Shown here piece by piece: positions 5,581-11,521 of a stretch of 24,990 nt of DNA. Numbering within the stretch: position 1 is the first letter of the stretch; each line of letters begins with the position of its first letter. The position numbers and the translations under genes are program-made. A model generated the notes under the pieces. The model was not told where the DNA came from, did not search any database, and saw only the letters and a list, made by a program, of their open reading frames with translations. The stretch is from Patescibacteria group bacterium (GTDB lineage Bacteria; Patescibacteriota; Minisyncoccia; JAHIHE01), in the NCBI GenBank assembly GCA_018899995.1, contig JAHIHE010000004.1:1-24990 (forward strand), in the 5' to 3' direction.

Positions 5581-6915
5581 ATGCGCTTTATCTGCGATTT
5601 CCACATTCACTCCAAATACTCGCGGGCTACCAGCCGGCAGATGGAGCCGGAAACGCTTGCTTATTGGGCCGCCATCAAGGGAATAAATGTTTTAGGCGCC
5701 GGCGATTTTACTCACCCAGCGTGGGTGAAAGAGCTGAAGGAAAAACTGGAGCCGGCGGAAAAAGGGCTTTACAAATTAAAAGACCCGAATTTTAAGCCGA
5801 AAGAAAATTCCGAGTTTGGCGTTTCGCGCCAATCGCTGGAAAAGGCGCGGTTTGTTTTAACCGCGGAAATATCCAGCATTTATTCCAAAGCCGGAAAAGT
5901 CAGGCGCGCGCATAATGTTATTTTCGCGCCCGATTTTGAAACGGTTGAAAAAATTAATTCAAAATTGGAGCAAATCGGAAATTTAAAATCCGACGGACGG
6001 CCGATTTTGGGCCTTGACGCAAAAGAACTTTTAAAAATCATTTTGAGCGTTTCTCCGGCTGCGGTGATGGTTCCGGCTCACGCCTGGACGCCATGGTTCT
6101 CCGTTTTCGGCTCAAAATCCGGCTTTGATTCTTTGGAGGAATGTTTTGACGATTACGCTAAATACATTTTCGCGATAGAAACGGGATTATCAAGCGACCC
6201 GGGGATGAACTGGCGGCTTTCGGCCCTTGACAAAATAACCTTGATTTCCAATTCGGACGCGCATTCTCCGGCAAACCTCGGCCGCGAAGCCAATGTTTTT
6301 GAGGGAGAAAGCATTGATTATTATTCAATAATGAGCGCGCTGAAAAACAAGGGACATTCGGACACAACCAAAACAGCGCCTTTGAAATTTTCGTACACCA
6401 TAGAATTTTTTCCCGAAGAAGGAAAATATCATTACGACGGACACCGGCTTTGCAATGTTTCAATGGGTCCCGAAGAAACAAAAAAAGCGAAAGGAGTTTG
6501 TCCGGTGTGCCGAAAGCCGCTGACTATCGGAGTGATGTACAGGGTTGAAGAACTGGCTGACCGGCCTGTTGGCGGAAAGCCGGAGCGGGTAATTCCTTAC
6601 AAAAACCTGATTCCTTTGGAAGAAATTATCGCCGACGCGCTGGGGCTGGGAAAAATTTCCAAAGCGACAAGAGCGGAATACGTCAAACTGATTTGCGCTC
6701 TTGGAAGCGAGTTCAATATTTTGCTTGACGCGCCGATTGAAGAAATCGCCAAGCATAGCGAGCCGATTATCGCCGAAGGTGTAAAAAGGACGCGAGAGCA
6801 AAAAGCAAAAGTAGTTCCGGGCTTTGACGGCGAATACGGAAAAATTAAAATTTTTGAAGAAAGCGAGAGGGAAAAATTCAAGGAAGAAAAAAAAGAACGC
6901 CAAAAATTGTTTTAG
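5581..6915 (+). CDS. Endonuclease Q-like PHP-domain protein (homologous to the PHP domain found N-terminal to some UvrD/REP helicases)
   Basis: DFHIHSKYSRATS, GAGDFTHP, PAHAWTPW, IETGLSSD, SNSDAHS, GKYHYDGHRLC...CPVC zinc finger, PGFDGEYG. Confidence 0.85.
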   Translation: MRFICDFHIHSKYSRATSRQMEPETLAYWAAIKGINVLGAGDFTHPAWVKELKEKLEPAEKGLYKLKDPNFKPKENSEFGVSRQSLEKARFVLTAEISSIYSKAGKVRRAHNVIFAPDFETVEKINSKLEQIGNLKSDGRPILGLDAKELLKIILSVSPAAVMVPAHAWTPWFSVFGSKSGFDSLEECFDDYAKYIFAIETGLSSDPGMNWRLSALDKITLISNSDAHSPANLGREANVFEGESIDYYSIMSALKNKGHSDTTKTAPLKFSYTIEFFPEEGKYHYDGHRLCNVSMGPEETKKAKGVCPVCRKPLTIGVMYRVEELADRPVGGKPERVIPYKNLIPLEEIIADALGLGKISKATRAEYVKLICALGSEFNILLDAPIEEIAKHSEPIIAEGVKRTREQKAKVVPGFDGEYGKIKIFEESEREKFKEEKKERQKLF

Positions 6916-6922
6916 AAAGTTT

Positions 6923-7060
6923 GCCCTCATAGCTCAATGGATAGACCTGCCCGCCATTTGCCCTTAACCTTTTTTGAAGCTTTATCTGTGTTTAATTAGC
7001 TAAAATACGGAAATTCTAAAATAGAACGATAAGGCTTTGGCAGGCGGGGCAAGTCCCTTC
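6923..7060 (+). pseudogene. 5' half of a tRNA (Arg-like) interrupted by a 103-bp insert and truncated at the anticodon loop
   Basis: GCCCTCATAGCTCAATGGATAGA (6923-6945), insert 6946-7048, then GCAAGTCCCTTC (7049-7060). No T-arm or 3' acceptor strand follows. Confidence 0.6.
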
Positions 7061-7068
7061 AAATTAGT

Positions 7069-8613
7069 TTAATTTAAATTTTTGTCCTCGTAGTTCAACG
7101 GACAGAACACAAGCCTCCGGAGCTTGGGATGCAAGTTCGATTCTTGCCGAGGGCACCACGTAGGAAATTGCAAGGAGTTTTGGTTCGCCTCGCTTCGCTC
7201 GGCGACTAATTCGTATTCAATTTTGGGGGTAAAAACGAATTCACGATTTCGCAAAATATGGTTCGAGCCGATGTTTTTCAGAAATGTTGTCATTGCAGTC
7301 GGATTGGGAGAGGAAAGCAGATTAGCGGCTTGATTTAAGGATTTTACGAACTCACGAGCCGGTTCGAGCCAAGACAACCCTTTTGTCTCAAAGTCGGTGA
7401 TTTTTTCGGAAAGTGATATTTTTTGAGACAGCAAAGTTTGTTTTTTGGCGGCGTATTCTTCTGTGGATAAGGCGTCAGCGAGATAGATATCTAACAACTT
7501 TTGAAGTTTTGCCTCGACTTGCGCTAATTGTTCTTTCATAACACTAACCTCGCCTTGTGCGTCCTCTCTCGCTTTATCCTGCTCACTATCCAACGCCGCC
7601 AAAACCTTCTCGGTATCTTGGCTCGACAAAGAAACTTTTTGAAGGTAAGAAGTGATTTGCTCTGTTAGTGCTTCCTCTCGCAGATAATGCTTTTCTTGGC
7701 AAATACCTTTCTTTTTCGTGCAACGATAGTAGTTATGCCTTTTCTGACGCTCTCCGGTAATTGAACAACCACACGAGGCACACTTTAGTAATCCAAGAAA
7801 AGCAAAATGATGTTTTCTCACTTCTTGCACTTTTCCACGCTTCGCCATTATCTCTTGGCATTTATCAAAAAGTTTCTTTGAAATTAACGGCTCGTGTTTC
7901 CCCTCAAAAATTTCCCCTTTCCACTTCATCAAACCAAGATAGAAAATATTTTGTAGATTCTTTTGGATATTGGCGATGACAAGTGGTTTATTGAGATTTC
8001 CACGCAAACCATTTTCATTGCACCAATTTGCGAGAGAATGAAGCGTATGCCTTCCGGTGGCGTACAATTCAAACATTTTTCTAACTTCGGGAGATTTATC
8101 TGGGTCAATATCTATTCCACGAGTTTTTGGATTATTGATGTAGCCAACCGGAGCCCAGCCGGGCCATACGCCATTTCTGATTTTCTGTCGTAAACCTCGC
8201 TTCACATTCTCTCGCAAATTGTCTACAAAATATTTTGATTGGCCAAAAGCGATGTTGAGCATAAACAACCCTTGCGGTGTTGGCTCAAACCAGAAAGTGG
8301 GAAATTTGAGAGATTTAATCAAGCCGCGATCAACAAAGTGGATTATTTTTCCACCATCAACACTGTTCCTTGCCAATCTGTCCGGGTGCCACGAAATTAT
8401 TCCGTCCGCCTTGCCTTGTTCCAGAAATGACAACATTTCGGAGAACTTTGTTCGCCCAGGTTCTTTAGCAGTCTTTGCCTCACATAGCGAGGCGACAATT
8501 TCAAGTTTTTCTTTAGCGGCAAATTCTTTTAATTCAACAAGCTGGGCTTCAATACTTAAAACTTGCCTGTCATCTTTTTCTGTGCTCTTGCGAGTGTAGA
8601 TAATGTATTTCAT
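7069..8613 (-). CDS. Large serine recombinase (resolvase + recombinase + Zn-ribbon + coiled coil)
   Basis: Catalytic YTRKST, DRLARN, CASCG...YYRC zinc ribbon. The last ~30 codons (WCPRQESNL...) are the antisense of tRNA-Arg. Confidence 0.93.
   Translation of the reverse strand: MKYIIYTRKSTEKDDRQVLSIEAQLVELKEFAAKEKLEIVASLCEAKTAKEPGRTKFSEMLSFLEQGKADGIISWHPDRLARNSVDGGKIIHFVDRGLIKSLKFPTFWFEPTPQGLFMLNIAFGQSKYFVDNLRENVKRGLRQKIRNGVWPGWAPVGYINNPKTRGIDIDPDKSPEVRKMFELYATGRHTLHSLANWCNENGLRGNLNKPLVIANIQKNLQNIFYLGLMKWKGEIFEGKHEPLISKKLFDKCQEIMAKRGKVQEVRKHHFAFLGLLKCASCGCSITGERQKRHNYYRCTKKKGICQEKHYLREEALTEQITSYLQKVSLSSQDTEKVLAALDSEQDKAREDAQGEVSVMKEQLAQVEAKLQKLLDIYLADALSTEEYAAKKQTLLSQKISLSEKITDFETKGLSWLEPAREFVKSLNQAANLLSSPNPTAMTTFLKNIGSNHILRNREFVFTPKIEYELVAERSEANQNSLQFPTWCPRQESNLHPKLRRLVFCPLNYEDKNLN
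7084..7158 (+). tRNA. tRNA-Arg (anticodon CCG)
   Basis: Acceptor GTCCTCG/CGAGGGC, D-arm GTTC/GAAC, anticodon stem CAAGC/GCTTG with loop CTCCGGA (CCG at 7117-7119), T-arm GCAAG-TTCGATT-CTTGC, encoded ACCA. Confidence 0.95.
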
Positions 8614-8682
8614 ATTTTTTTCCTTTGGTTAATAATAATTTTGAAAAAATTTTCTTTTACTTTGAATTAAATTCAAAACAAA

Positions 8683-8910
8683 ACCGCCAACTGATTTTTT
8701 ACCCAAAATTCCTTACAATTTAATCGCCGAGCGAAGCGAGGCGAATCAACGAAATTTGACTTTTCCTTACTAGTGCTCTATTCTTAAAATAGTTCGAACG
8801 CATTTCGCCGCCTGCGGCGACGGCCAGCCCCCAAAATTTGAGTGGCTTCGCCGCGATCTTAAAAACTGCCAAAGAACCTGATAAAAATATCGGCTCGAAC
8901 CATATTTTTG
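8683..8910 (+). pseudogene. Fragments of a second, oppositely oriented serine recombinase gene
   Basis: 8724-8745 matches the reverse complement of 7184-7205 at 22/22 (AERSEAN). 8861-8880 matches rc 8457-8476 at 18/20 (KTAKEP). 8883-8908 matches rc 7253-7278 at 25/26 (KNIGSNHI). Confidence 0.8.
8773..8860 (+). repeat. 88-bp perfect inverted repeat, left copy
   Basis: Exact reverse complement of 10455-10542. The ORF track shows the same peptide, KIAAKPLKFWGLAVAAGGEMRSNYFKNRA, on opposite strands at both sites. Confidence 0.95.
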
Positions 8911-9034
8911 GAAAAGAAAATTTTTTCATATCTGATTCCGAATTAAGTTTCGGTTTTTTTATTTTTGAGCTATAATTTAGATAGATATGGCTAAAACAGA
9001 TAAACAGCACATTAACAAGAAAGGAGGGGGAACT

Positions 9035-10315
9035 ATGATCAGCAATATCCTGATTATCGGTAGTGGTGGAAGAGAGCATGCACTCGCATGGAAACTCGCT
9101 CAATCACCACGCATTGGCAAGTTGTATGTCGCGCCCGGAAATGGCGGCACTCGTGACATCGCTGAAAATATTGCGATTGAAGCCACAGACGCCAGGGGTT
9201 TGGCTCGTTTTGCCGAAAAGAATTCAATCAATCTAACAGTAGTCGGTCCTGACGACCCGCTTGCGTTTGGCGTAGTTGATGTTTTTCAATCTCATGGCTT
9301 ACGCATTTTCGGACCCACTCGTGTCGCGGCACAGATTGAGGCATCTAAAGCGTTTGCCAAACGACTTATGCGCGATAGCGATATTCCGACTGCGCCATTT
9401 CGGATATTTCGAAAGCATGAAAGTGCATTAGAATATGTTCGCAAACATGGGGCGCCGATTGTCGTCAAGGCGAGCGGATTGGCGCTTGGCAAAGGTGCCT
9501 ATCCTTGCAAAACACTCGCTAAAGCAGAGAAGGCTCTGGCAGAAATTATGCTTGAGCGCGCTTACAATCAAGCTGGCAACGAAGTCATCGTCGAGGAGTT
9601 TCTGAATGGGCAAGAAGTTTCAATTCACGCTCTCTGCGACGGCAAAACCTCAATCCTATTACCTACCGCGCAAGACCACAAGCCGATTTTCGACGGCGAC
9701 AAGGGCAAGAATACTGGCGGTATGGGAACAATCGCGCCCGTGCCCTGGGTTACGGATCAAACCTTGCGAGAAGTGAACGAGCAAATCGTTCGCCCGACAT
9801 TGCAAGCGCTTACGAAGAAAGGAAAGCCGTTTACTGGTTGTTTGTACCCCGGGCTAAAGATGACAGACGAGGGGCCGAAAGTGCTTGAATACAACGCAAG
9901 ATTTGGCGACCCTGAAACGCAAAGTTATATGCGACTTCTCAAAACAGATTTGCTTGATGTTTTAGACGCATGCGTTGACGGTAAACTCGCCGACCTTGCC
10001 GTTGAATGGAATTCCGGTTTCGCCGTTTGCGTTGTCCTCGCTTCGGGAGGATATCCGGGAAAGTACAAAAAGGAAATTCCGATATCAGGCATTACTGAAG
10101 CGGAGAAAATTCCCGGTGTCGTTGTTTTTCACGCTGGCACAATGTGTAGCGACCAACTTCGGACTTCCGGCGGACGCGTTCTCGGAGTTACAGCAATCGG
10201 TAAAACTCTTCAAAAAGCTCTTGATCGAGCGTACGAAGCAGTTCGCCAAATTAAGTTCAAGGATATGCAGTACCGAAAAGACATCGGTGCTAAAGCCATT
10301 GCTATGGGGTTCTAA
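9035..10315 (+). CDS. purD: Phosphoribosylamine--glycine ligase (GAR synthetase)
   Basis: IGSGGREHALAWKL, APGNGG, KASGLALGKG, QDHK...NTGGMG, EYNARFGDPETQ, TSGGRVL, YRKDIG. SD AAGGAGG at 9021-9027 favours ATG 9035. Confidence 0.97.
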   Translation: MISNILIIGSGGREHALAWKLAQSPRIGKLYVAPGNGGTRDIAENIAIEATDARGLARFAEKNSINLTVVGPDDPLAFGVVDVFQSHGLRIFGPTRVAAQIEASKAFAKRLMRDSDIPTAPFRIFRKHESALEYVRKHGAPIVVKASGLALGKGAYPCKTLAKAEKALAEIMLERAYNQAGNEVIVEEFLNGQEVSIHALCDGKTSILLPTAQDHKPIFDGDKGKNTGGMGTIAPVPWVTDQTLREVNEQIVRPTLQALTKKGKPFTGCLYPGLKMTDEGPKVLEYNARFGDPETQSYMRLLKTDLLDVLDACVDGKLADLAVEWNSGFAVCVVLASGGYPGKYKKEIPISGITEAEKIPGVVVFHAGTMCSDQLRTSGGRVLGVTAIGKTLQKALDRAYEAVRQIKFKDMQYRKDIGAKAIAMGF

Positions 10316-10341
10316 TTCCTTCGGGGATTAGAACCTTTTTT
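10308..10341 (+). terminator. Intrinsic terminator of purD
   Basis: GGTTCTAATTCC-TTCG-GGGATTAGAACC stem-loop followed by a T run. Confidence 0.75.
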
Positions 10342-10454
10342 CTTTTCCGAAAAAGAATTTGCCGCCAAAGCAGTAAATTTTTCAAGCTCATTTTTCTTGA
10401 AAAATTTACTGTAATGAGTTATGATTAACTCATTAGAAAAACTTGAAATTGTCA

Positions 10455-10542
10455 AAGATCGCGGCGAAGCCACTCAAATTTTGGGGGCTGGCCGTCGCCG
10501 CAGGCGGCGAAATGCGTTCGAACTATTTTAAGAATAGAGCAC
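10455..10542 (-). repeat. 88-bp perfect inverted repeat, right copy
   Basis: Reverse complement of 8773-8860; ends in GCAC (10539-10542). Confidence 0.95.
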
Positions 10543-10595
10543 AAATTGTAGGACATTGTATGGGGCGAAGCCTTAAATTGAGGTTCGCCACGGGA

Positions 10596-10697
10596 TCCCG
10601 GGATGAACCCGGGACAAGTAAACCCTTGCCCTGCGTTCATCGCAGGGCGTGGCGCCCCGCCCCATGATAAACACGGGGTAAACGTTCATCGCGGGGC
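10596..10697. repeat. Cluster of small GC-rich hairpins (REP-like)
   Basis: TCCCGGG-ATGAA-CCCGGGA (10596-10614); GCCCTGCG-TTCAT-CGCAGGGC (10628-10648); CCCCATG-ATAAA-CACGGGG (10660-10678), nested within GCCCCGC...GCGGGGC. Confidence 0.75.
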
Positions 10698-10715
10698 GAT
10701 TCTTGCCGAGGGCAC
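10697..10715 (+). repeat. Duplicated tRNA-Arg 3' end (att-like right boundary)
   Basis: Identical to 7138-7156 over 19 bp. Confidence 0.9.
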
Positions 10716-10782
10716 ACTAAAAAAATTTTCGATTTTCAATGACCAATTTTCAAACAATTTTTAATTTTTAAACAAAAATATT

Positions 10783-11280
10783 ATGAGCAGAACCCTTGGG
10801 GCTATAATCATACTGCTTGCGGCTTTCTGGGCGATTAACAATCCTTCTTCCGCGCCGGTTCTAAACAAATATTTGCCCGAGCCCGGAATTCTGCCGTCAA
10901 GCAAATTATACCCGGCAAAAATTCTTTACGAAGACATCCGCGCCATGCTTACTTTTGACAATCTGTCCAAAGTGAAATTGTATCTGGAGCTGGCGGACAA
11001 ACGCCTGGCGGAAATAAAAAAGCTTGAGGAAAAAGGTGATGTTAATCAAATCAAAGAAACCCTTCTGCGGTACCAAAAATTGACGGAAAAATCGCAGGAA
11101 ACGATAAATGCCGCGCGGGAGAAAACCAAAGAGTTTCAGGATAGCGCGAATAAAATCATTGACGAGGCGAAAAGCAAGGACGCAAGCACGCTTGCGGAAC
11201 TTTACGCGAAAACATCCGGAGAAATAAAAAACGCCATAAACGATTCGCTTGCTAAGATTATGAAATGGAGGACGAATTAG
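10783..11280 (+). CDS. DUF5667-like membrane-anchored helical protein
   Basis: N-terminal hydrophobic segment, then PGILPSSKLYPAK...LYLELADKRLAE, which resembles CPR DUF5667 from recall. Confidence 0.65.
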   Translation: MSRTLGAIIILLAAFWAINNPSSAPVLNKYLPEPGILPSSKLYPAKILYEDIRAMLTFDNLSKVKLYLELADKRLAEIKKLEEKGDVNQIKETLLRYQKLTEKSQETINAAREKTKEFQDSANKIIDEAKSKDASTLAELYAKTSGEIKNAINDSLAKIMKWRTN

Positions 11281-11302
11281 TGAAATAATATAAAATTAAC
11301 AT

Positions 11303-11488
11303 ATGTCTTTTTCCGAACAAGAAAAAATAAAAATCGTGAAAAGCGCTTTTCAAAAATTCGTTGACACTGTTTTAAAACTGCTTGCTGGGCAGAGGGCTTT
11401 ATTTGAGAAAATTATGAAACAAATTGAAGCGCGAAAAATCGCGGAGCATCGGGAGAAAATTAAGAATATTTTTAATTCTAATAAATAA
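11303..11488 (+). CDS. Small hypothetical protein
   Basis: 61-aa ORF, co-directional and closely spaced after 11280, with plausible composition. Confidence 0.55.
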   Translation: MSFSEQEKIKIVKSAFQKFVDTVLKLLAGQRALFEKIMKQIEARKIAEHREKIKNIFNSNK

Positions 11489-11521
11489 TAATTATTTTAA
11501 ATTTCAAAATTACTCCTTTAT

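Follow-up and report, generated by a model that had tools for sequence, protein, structure and literature searches.

A 24,990-nucleotide stretch of DNA from a Patescibacteria group bacterium (assembly GCA_018899995.1, contig JAHIHE010000004.1, positions 1 to 24,990; the window in the following) carries the gene purD, which encodes phosphoribosylamine-glycine ligase, between two inverted copies of an 88-bp repeat. A gene for a large serine recombinase and a tRNA-Arg(CCG) gene are located beside this frame. The question raised by the locus is whether the repeat encloses an invertible switch, a mobile unit of its own, or the cargo of a larger element. The most probable answer, to which a probability of about 0.75 is assigned, is that the segment from position 7153/7157 to 10538/10542 is one integrated two-module mobile element, which was inserted at the 3′ end of the tRNA gene by the large serine recombinase, and that purD is its captured cargo and not part of a switch. 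This reading draws on the anatomy of the locus, the conservation of that anatomy in a family of related elements, a precise empty site, the P-type geometry of the repeat arms, the variability of the cargo, and the spread of purD.

The element has precise ends

A contig from a groundwater metagenome (run X6) matches positions 6500–7152 of the window without a mismatch and then continues from position 10539 onward, and the two sides share GCAC alone. A join of 7152 to 10539 cannot form by accident in a 31-mer graph. Therefore, the recombinase and purD modules form a single unit that a locus either has or lacks; its left boundary is the GCAC core at the tRNA end (7153–7156) and its right boundary is the GCAC core at 10539–10542. 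An earlier note on this DNA had proposed a comparison with the empty tRNA-Arg locus of relatives; a genome of the same genus (G001) indeed has tRNA-Arg(CCG) together with both flanking genes, and lacks the recombinase and purD. Further joints (8878 to 10438, 8907 to 10496, 8929 to 10435, and 8474/8864) have fewer than 31 nucleotides on one side and were not used; they probably stem from related elements of other organisms.

In the related locus L050, the nucleotides shared at the junction shrink to two, GT/AC, which indicates a 2-nt crossover at A73–C74 of the tRNA (dinucleotide AC), as expected of a serine recombinase. In the window element, the crossover at A73–C74 would be positioned inside GCAC.

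The tRNA-Arg(CCG) gene, which is the integration target and supplies the left half of the target-side attachment site (attB), occupies positions 7084–7158 of the forward strand (ARAGORN; Rfam tRNA score of 63 bits). The recombinase gene is on the reverse strand at 7069–8613. Its 514-residue-long product has the Pfam domains Resolvase (PF00239, 1e-20), Recombinase (PF07508, 4e-15), and Zn_ribbon_recom (PF13408, 2e-8), in this order, and its closest relatives of solved structure in the PDB are the A118 and SPbeta integrases, which are weakly similar (E about 1e-7). The final ~28 codons of the gene (7156 to 7069) are read from the strand opposite to the tRNA.

The first module of the element consists of the recombinase gene, the last ~100 nucleotides of which form the P arm, and of an inverted copy of this arm, M2, upstream of the gene. 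The P arm, the element-side half-site beside the tRNA, is at 7157–7260 on the reverse strand and is 96–100% identical to the P arms of the related loci L028, L029, and L048. M2 spans 8640–8776 on the forward strand and was identified as an inverted repeat, by tblastn, and by BLAST comparison of modules. The second module is a cargo slot enclosed by two inverted X arms, which make up the 88-bp repeat. The proximal X arm (8773–8860, forward strand) is joined to M2 at the GTGC core at 8773–8776, and the distal X arm (10455–10542, reverse strand) is the true right end of the element.

A repeat search found the two X arms to be inverted, 88 nucleotides long, 100% complementary, and spaced 1594 nucleotides apart, as the earlier note had described them; perfect arms of this length cannot be due to chance. 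The statement that purD, its upstream region, and its terminator alone are placed between the arms agrees with the analysis of open reading frames, domains, and hairpins.

Attachment-arm geometry identifies the 88-bp repeat

The T-loop motif (T/C)CGAAC, counted outward from the core, is at +13 in the tRNA targets and at +18 in the X arms. These positions hold in 16 of the 18 loci on each side and the 5-bp difference in 15 of the 18; the window agrees, with TTCGAAC at +18 from the core in the proximal X arm, which also contains GC-rich hairpins. In the LI model of large serine integrases, the motif bound by the zinc-ribbon domain is 5 bp closer to the center in attB than in attP, the element-side attachment site (Rutherford et al. 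2013, PMC3783163). The matching shift indicates that the tRNA is an attB-type half-site and that X, which imitates the T arm, is a P-type half-site (P′). Consequently, the right-end attachment arm of the element is the distal X; attP would form on excision, when this arm is connected to the 3′ end of the recombinase gene; and the M2/GTGC/X junction at 8773 is an internal inverted copy of attP. The presence of such a copy would account for both inverted-repeat pairs. The earlier proposals that the repeat is the element-side attachment arm and that the island holds an additional internal attachment-like site are thus supported by motif spacing.

Other parts of the earlier description fared differently. 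The GCAC/GTGC sequence is present at 7153–7156, 8773–8776, 10539–10542, and 10712–10715, which had been taken as one set of junctions; the first three belong together as the two ends and one internal copy, and the last belongs to another mini-element. Recombinase-like peptides had been noticed on both outer flanks of the repeat. On the left flank, positions 8695–8776 are a decayed inverted copy of the recombinase 3′ end (67% over 27 amino acids by tblastn). On the right flank, the peptide MSYNL is encoded by DNA that followed the tRNA before insertion, according to the empty-site contig, and the interpretation of the stretch right of 10542 as a third recombinase-end remnant was rejected for the same reason. 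Two other identities of X′, the inverted counterpart of X, were also considered: a coding continuation of an N-terminal recombinase fragment (residues 42–70) and a decayed tRNA. Both were rejected, since the spacing of the motif and the pattern at the junctions are those of an attP-type arm. An Rfam search of positions 6500–11500 had the tRNA as its sole match, with none for X or for the segment M3 described below.

A family of two-module elements in Patescibacteria

Elements of this family occur in hundreds of Patescibacteria genomes and are common among the ultra-small bacteria of groundwater. At least 429 relatives of the recombinase are encoded in genome contigs, and the family survey covers the best 80 of them, which have 60–89% amino-acid identity and come from many lineages of Patescibacteria. 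The recombinase 3′ end adjoins a tRNA gene, of many specificities, in 48 of the 58 scorable loci. Two back-to-back inverted-repeat pairs that share 4–6 nucleotides at their junction are present in 35 loci. In the first pair, ~100 bp long, one arm is the recombinase 3′ end and the other is the inverted copy of it. The second pair, the X arms of ~90–105 bp, encloses a slot of 0.64–2.1 kb, and the GTGC junction at 8773–8776 of the window has the same form in all family loci. The commonest order of modules upstream of the recombinase is X, A, cargo, B, X′, M2 (X+ A− B− X−), and no modules were found downstream of the recombinase in 58 loci.

The arms of one element have a median identity of 99% in both pairs, and the X pairs are perfect in 16 of the 35 loci. 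By contrast, arms of different elements are 57–71% alike. Therefore, the arms evolve in concert, and their identity appears to be maintained by gene conversion.

The cargo of the slots is unrelated in nearly every locus and includes methyltransferases, an HD enzyme together with a NUDIX enzyme, radical SAM enzymes, HisG, NAD(P)H-hydrate dehydratase with a short-chain dehydrogenase/reductase (SDR), PsbP-like proteins, and hypothetical proteins. Among 36 slots compared, one pair alone, L029 and L064, has DNA in common. An empty slot, which would appear as an uninterrupted X–X′ palindrome beside a recombinase gene, was not present in the 80 loci.

No description of this element family was found in the literature. 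The recombinase and its sites follow the logic known from large serine integrases; four features are undescribed in the literature found, namely the use of tRNA ends as targets, a P arm that is part of the recombinase gene, an internal inverted attP that is always present, and a slot for one exchangeable gene.

In the host genome, a remnant P arm, derived from the 3′ end of a recombinase gene, directly adjoins the tmRNA gene at its 3′ end (G000 C83:2160-2310), which indicates that the family targets tmRNA as well. In place of a tRNA, two loci, L033 (~5706) and L055 (~7461), have another sequence next to the recombinase 3′ end, in which the T-loop motif is at +17. Circular or tandem forms of the element may have given rise to these junctions, which would then be of the attP type.

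purD as a captured cassette

The purD reading frame extends over positions 8987–10315 of the forward strand (Pfam GARS_N, GARS_A, and GARS_C), with the likely true start at ATG 9035, which is preceded by GGAGG. Its intrinsic terminator at 10306–10337 on the same strand has a 14-bp stem followed by a run of T. The GC content of purD is 49%, versus 40% for the genome. The gene was not found in three sister genomes (other genomes of the taxonomic family), and homologues within the same order, with 57–58% identity, are located outside recombinase slots.

The PurD protein was compared among 400 genomes of the phylum (the unpublished genome G185 is included, and no claim is based on it). Its best relative, 93% identical, is encoded in G067, a genome from another class, and the next is 63% identical. 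A 1539-nt block corresponding to window positions 8912–10450 is 91.6% identical in G067, including a 64-nt insert in the A module. The cassette of G067 adjoins tRNA-Arg(CCT) and has neither a recombinase nor X arms. The complete frame M2-X-B-purD-A-X′ is present in metagenome contigs, with 75–95% amino-acid identity, behind tRNA-Leu, tRNA-Lys, tRNA-Arg, and tRNA-Ile, and the 64-nt insert is found in several metagenome contigs as well. By its sequence relationships, the purD cassette is judged to have moved horizontally. Between the A and B borders, purD comes with a ribosome-binding site and a terminator of its own, and it is best seen as a captured cassette. The suggestion of the earlier note that purD was captured separately is borne out, since other copies of the element carry unrelated slot genes and the same cassette is present in another class and behind other tRNAs.

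The cargo borders are conserved. The B module (8861–8930, forward strand), on the left, contains inverted repeats and is 91–96% identical in other elements; it is composed of fragments of the recombinase gene, nucleotides 138–157 and 1335–1361, plus an A/T-rich palindromic box. The A module (10351–10454, forward strand), on the right, contains inverted repeats and a fragment of recombinase-gene nucleotides 84–120, and it is interrupted at 10371–10434 by the 64-nt insert, which is formed by two perfect hairpins (fold z = −9.5). This double hairpin resembles small palindromic inserts elsewhere in the window.

Stages of decay are visible among related loci. In L141, the recombinase is reduced to residues 1–54 and 446–493, which reproduces the B1–B2 junction of the B module, and in L146 the recombinase module is reduced to its P arm. 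Locus L013 (G002:C31, positions 6287–9830), behind tRNA-Arg(TCG), is a row of three cassettes without a recombinase, with A-hairpin-B units between them. One of these cassettes is PsbP-like and two are of unknown type; one junction is broken by a fragment of a DDE transposase, and two P arms directly after the tRNA have collapsed into a 32-nt palindrome.

The host genome has a match to SAICAR synthase, purC (G000 C70:1695-2429), and a match to purH (AICARFT/IMPCHase) was not found in it; purD thus joins an incomplete purine pathway.

The window element is a mosaic

The first 300 nucleotides of the recombinase gene resemble the purD lineage and the rest resembles L028 and L029, with the switch around nucleotides 300–600 as determined from sliding identity; the last 100 nucleotides are 100% identical to those of L028 and L029. 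M2, X, and B match the L039/L041 type at 88–95%. M2 is 72% identical to its own P arm over 85 nucleotides and 91–92% identical to the arms of L039 and L041, so that the pair framing the recombinase matches at 72% in the window copy versus ~99% in other elements. The differing affinities indicate that the 3′ part of the recombinase was exchanged. The internal attP copy of the window element may no longer match its enzyme.

Inversion, separate elements, and assembly

The 88-nt arms are perfect, inverted, and core-bearing, and the homogenization of arms inside every element implies some arm-to-arm interaction. A phase-variable or regulatory switch, with the 1.6-kb purD segment turned around between the X arms by the recombinase or by RecA, is nevertheless improbable. 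The orientation of the cargo relative to the recombinase is constant in all informative family loci, and the purD unit is oriented alike beside the P arm in about 10 independent purD contigs. Flipping would not alter expression, because the ribosome-binding site and terminator of purD are inside the arms, and two attP-type sites are not normally recombined by large serine integrases (PMC3783163). The locus therefore has the inverted sites of an inversion switch, but one orientation of its cargo and neither a promoter nor a gene part that depends on orientation, and the earlier idea of an invertible purD cassette is not upheld. The evidence on orientation comes from assembled loci and contigs, since Logan k = 31 contigs break inside the 88-nt repeats and inversion makes no new 31-mers. 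Two metagenome contigs speak for flipping: in L156 (1390–3302), the recombinase module is flipped relative to purD, and L154 looks like a deletion derivative of such a flipped form. On either side of the L156 recombinase is a P-X-B-cargo unit, the two being mirror images of each other; one carries purD and the other a different cargo. L156 is either a real symmetric composite or a chimera from repeat-induced misassembly, and is given little weight.

It is unlikely, although less far-fetched than a switch, that two elements lie side by side: a non-autonomous purD unit with 88-bp terminal inverted repeats, mobilized in trans, next to an unrelated recombinase element. Cassette units without a recombinase do occur in G067 and in the G002:C31 array, solo A-X′ modules are present on contigs C21 and C147, and the recombinase and cargo modules of the window differ in their sub-lineage affinity. 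However, the two modules share core nucleotides, and 35 loci spread over the phylum have both of them, arranged and oriented alike. Both are missing from the empty site, and the recombinase-less copies can readily be derived by deletion, with L141, L146, and L154 as intermediates. Finally, a repeat created by mis-joining of metagenome sequences, which the earlier note named as grounds for refutation, is next to impossible. The source genome is a metagenome bin of 164 contigs, and the Logan contigs break inside the arms. Nevertheless, contigs of four runs from four studies cover every junction flank with zero mismatches, and the same architecture is found in dozens of independent assemblies, including those with other purD copies; the paired arms, with their median identity of 99%, come from 35 independent assemblies.

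Several points count against a single integrated element with captured cargo. That this recombinase catalyzes the events at these sites is something we infer, as is the role of the internal attP copy. The resemblance of M2 to its own P arm, at only 72%, suggests that the internal site may be defunct here. No gene for a directionality factor is evident in the 3.4-kb element, and no search aimed at one was made; the circular junction was not seen in Logan contigs, and the empty-site contig could be an ancestral unoccupied allele and not a product of excision. The reading also leaves unexplained why an internal inverted attP copy is present in every member and how ~99% arm identity is kept without flipping.

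A broader proposal, made tentatively, is that the double inverted-repeat frame is a working device, and that the elements are a serine-recombinase gene-cassette platform of Patescibacteria analogous to integrons. The internal attP copy and the A and B borders would then allow the exchange of cassettes between elements and their stacking into recombinase-less arrays by tRNAs. In addition, the two arms may base-pair with each other, either as a cruciform or within single-stranded DNA that these competent cells import, and so restore a double-stranded attachment site. Arm pairing, if true, would account for the ~99% identity without flipping of the cargo.

Relation to known recombination systems

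The recombinase has the three-domain architecture of phage-type large serine integrases (Listeria A118/LI, SPbeta SprA, phiC31, and Bxb1), and the element shares with them the precise 2-nt crossover and the 5-bp motif shift between target-side and element-side half-sites. Unlike the phage integrases, it targets the 3′ ends of many tRNA genes, and the final ~100 nucleotides of its recombinase gene serve as the P arm. Each arm measures ~100 bp, an internal inverted attP copy is always present, and the elements are 3–4 kb in size with one cargo gene. In further contrast to phages, neither phage genes nor a directionality factor are evident, the latter not having been specifically sought.

The transposons Tn4451/Tn4453 (recombinase TnpX) and Tn5397 (TndX) are small cargo elements that are excised and inserted by a large serine recombinase with a dinucleotide core, and the present element is alike in this. 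They are not known to have tRNA targeting, paired 100-bp inverted repeats, or a swappable one-gene slot. Like the family, integrons are built from units of a single gene, in which the borders are conserved and the cargo differs widely, and integrase-less arrays of integron cassettes (CALINs) have their counterpart in the recombinase-less arrays beside a fixed site in G002:C31 and G067. However, the enzyme here is a serine recombinase, whereas integrons use the tyrosine recombinase IntI with attI. The borders are the recombinase-gene fragments A and B, with no attC identified in an analysis that ran no attC model, and the cassettes bring their own expression signals.

The Hin, Gin, and Cin systems and FLP of the yeast 2-micron plasmid likewise have a recombinase gene beside segments framed by site-bearing inverted repeats. 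They differ from the present element, which has a recombinase of the large integrase type, a single observed cargo orientation, and no orientation-dependent gene or promoter. In the archaeal integrases of the SSV type, which belong to the tyrosine family, attP is inside the integrase gene, which integration cuts into two parts. The attachment site of the present element is also within the recombinase open reading frame, but the tail alone (the last ~28 codons, 7069–7156) is replaced.

A mini-element and a motif to the right of the element

A separate mini-element of 173 bp (10543–10715, forward strand) follows the right end. Its final 19 bp (10697–10715) directly repeat the 3′ end of tRNA-Arg (7138–7156), and its retention in the empty-site contig places it outside the recombinase-purD element. 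It contains M3, a GC-rich, strongly structured segment of ~120 nucleotides (10583–10715) with several T-arm-like hairpins (fold z = −5). Copies of M3 are present behind five other tRNAs in the host genome (C91:4182-4302, C20:890-941, C18:865-916, C58:2524-2571, and C21:5844-5920), always just downstream of the tRNA gene and often followed by a 19–21-nt copy of a tRNA 3′ end. M3 may be a mini integrative element or an unknown RNA.

Upstream of a DUF5667 gene is an AT-rich motif of ~50 nucleotides (10720–10772), which has copies of 80–88% identity on 14 or more further contigs of the host genome and is possibly a common promoter or leader.

Significance for Patescibacteria

Patescibacteria have tiny genomes and patchy metabolism, and the routes by which they gain genes are little known. 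The element family is a compact vehicle that places single metabolic genes at tRNA ends throughout the phylum. In the window this gene is purD, and other copies carry genes for HisG, methyltransferases, NUDIX/HD enzymes, and radical SAM enzymes. The copy in the window adds a natural precise empty site, a cassette with 92% DNA identity between classes, and visible stages of the decay by which complete elements turn into cassette arrays that lack a recombinase. The apparent recognition of the universal tRNA T arm, with a clear attB/attP geometry as judged from sequence, would make these recombinases testable, and they may prove useful as integrases.

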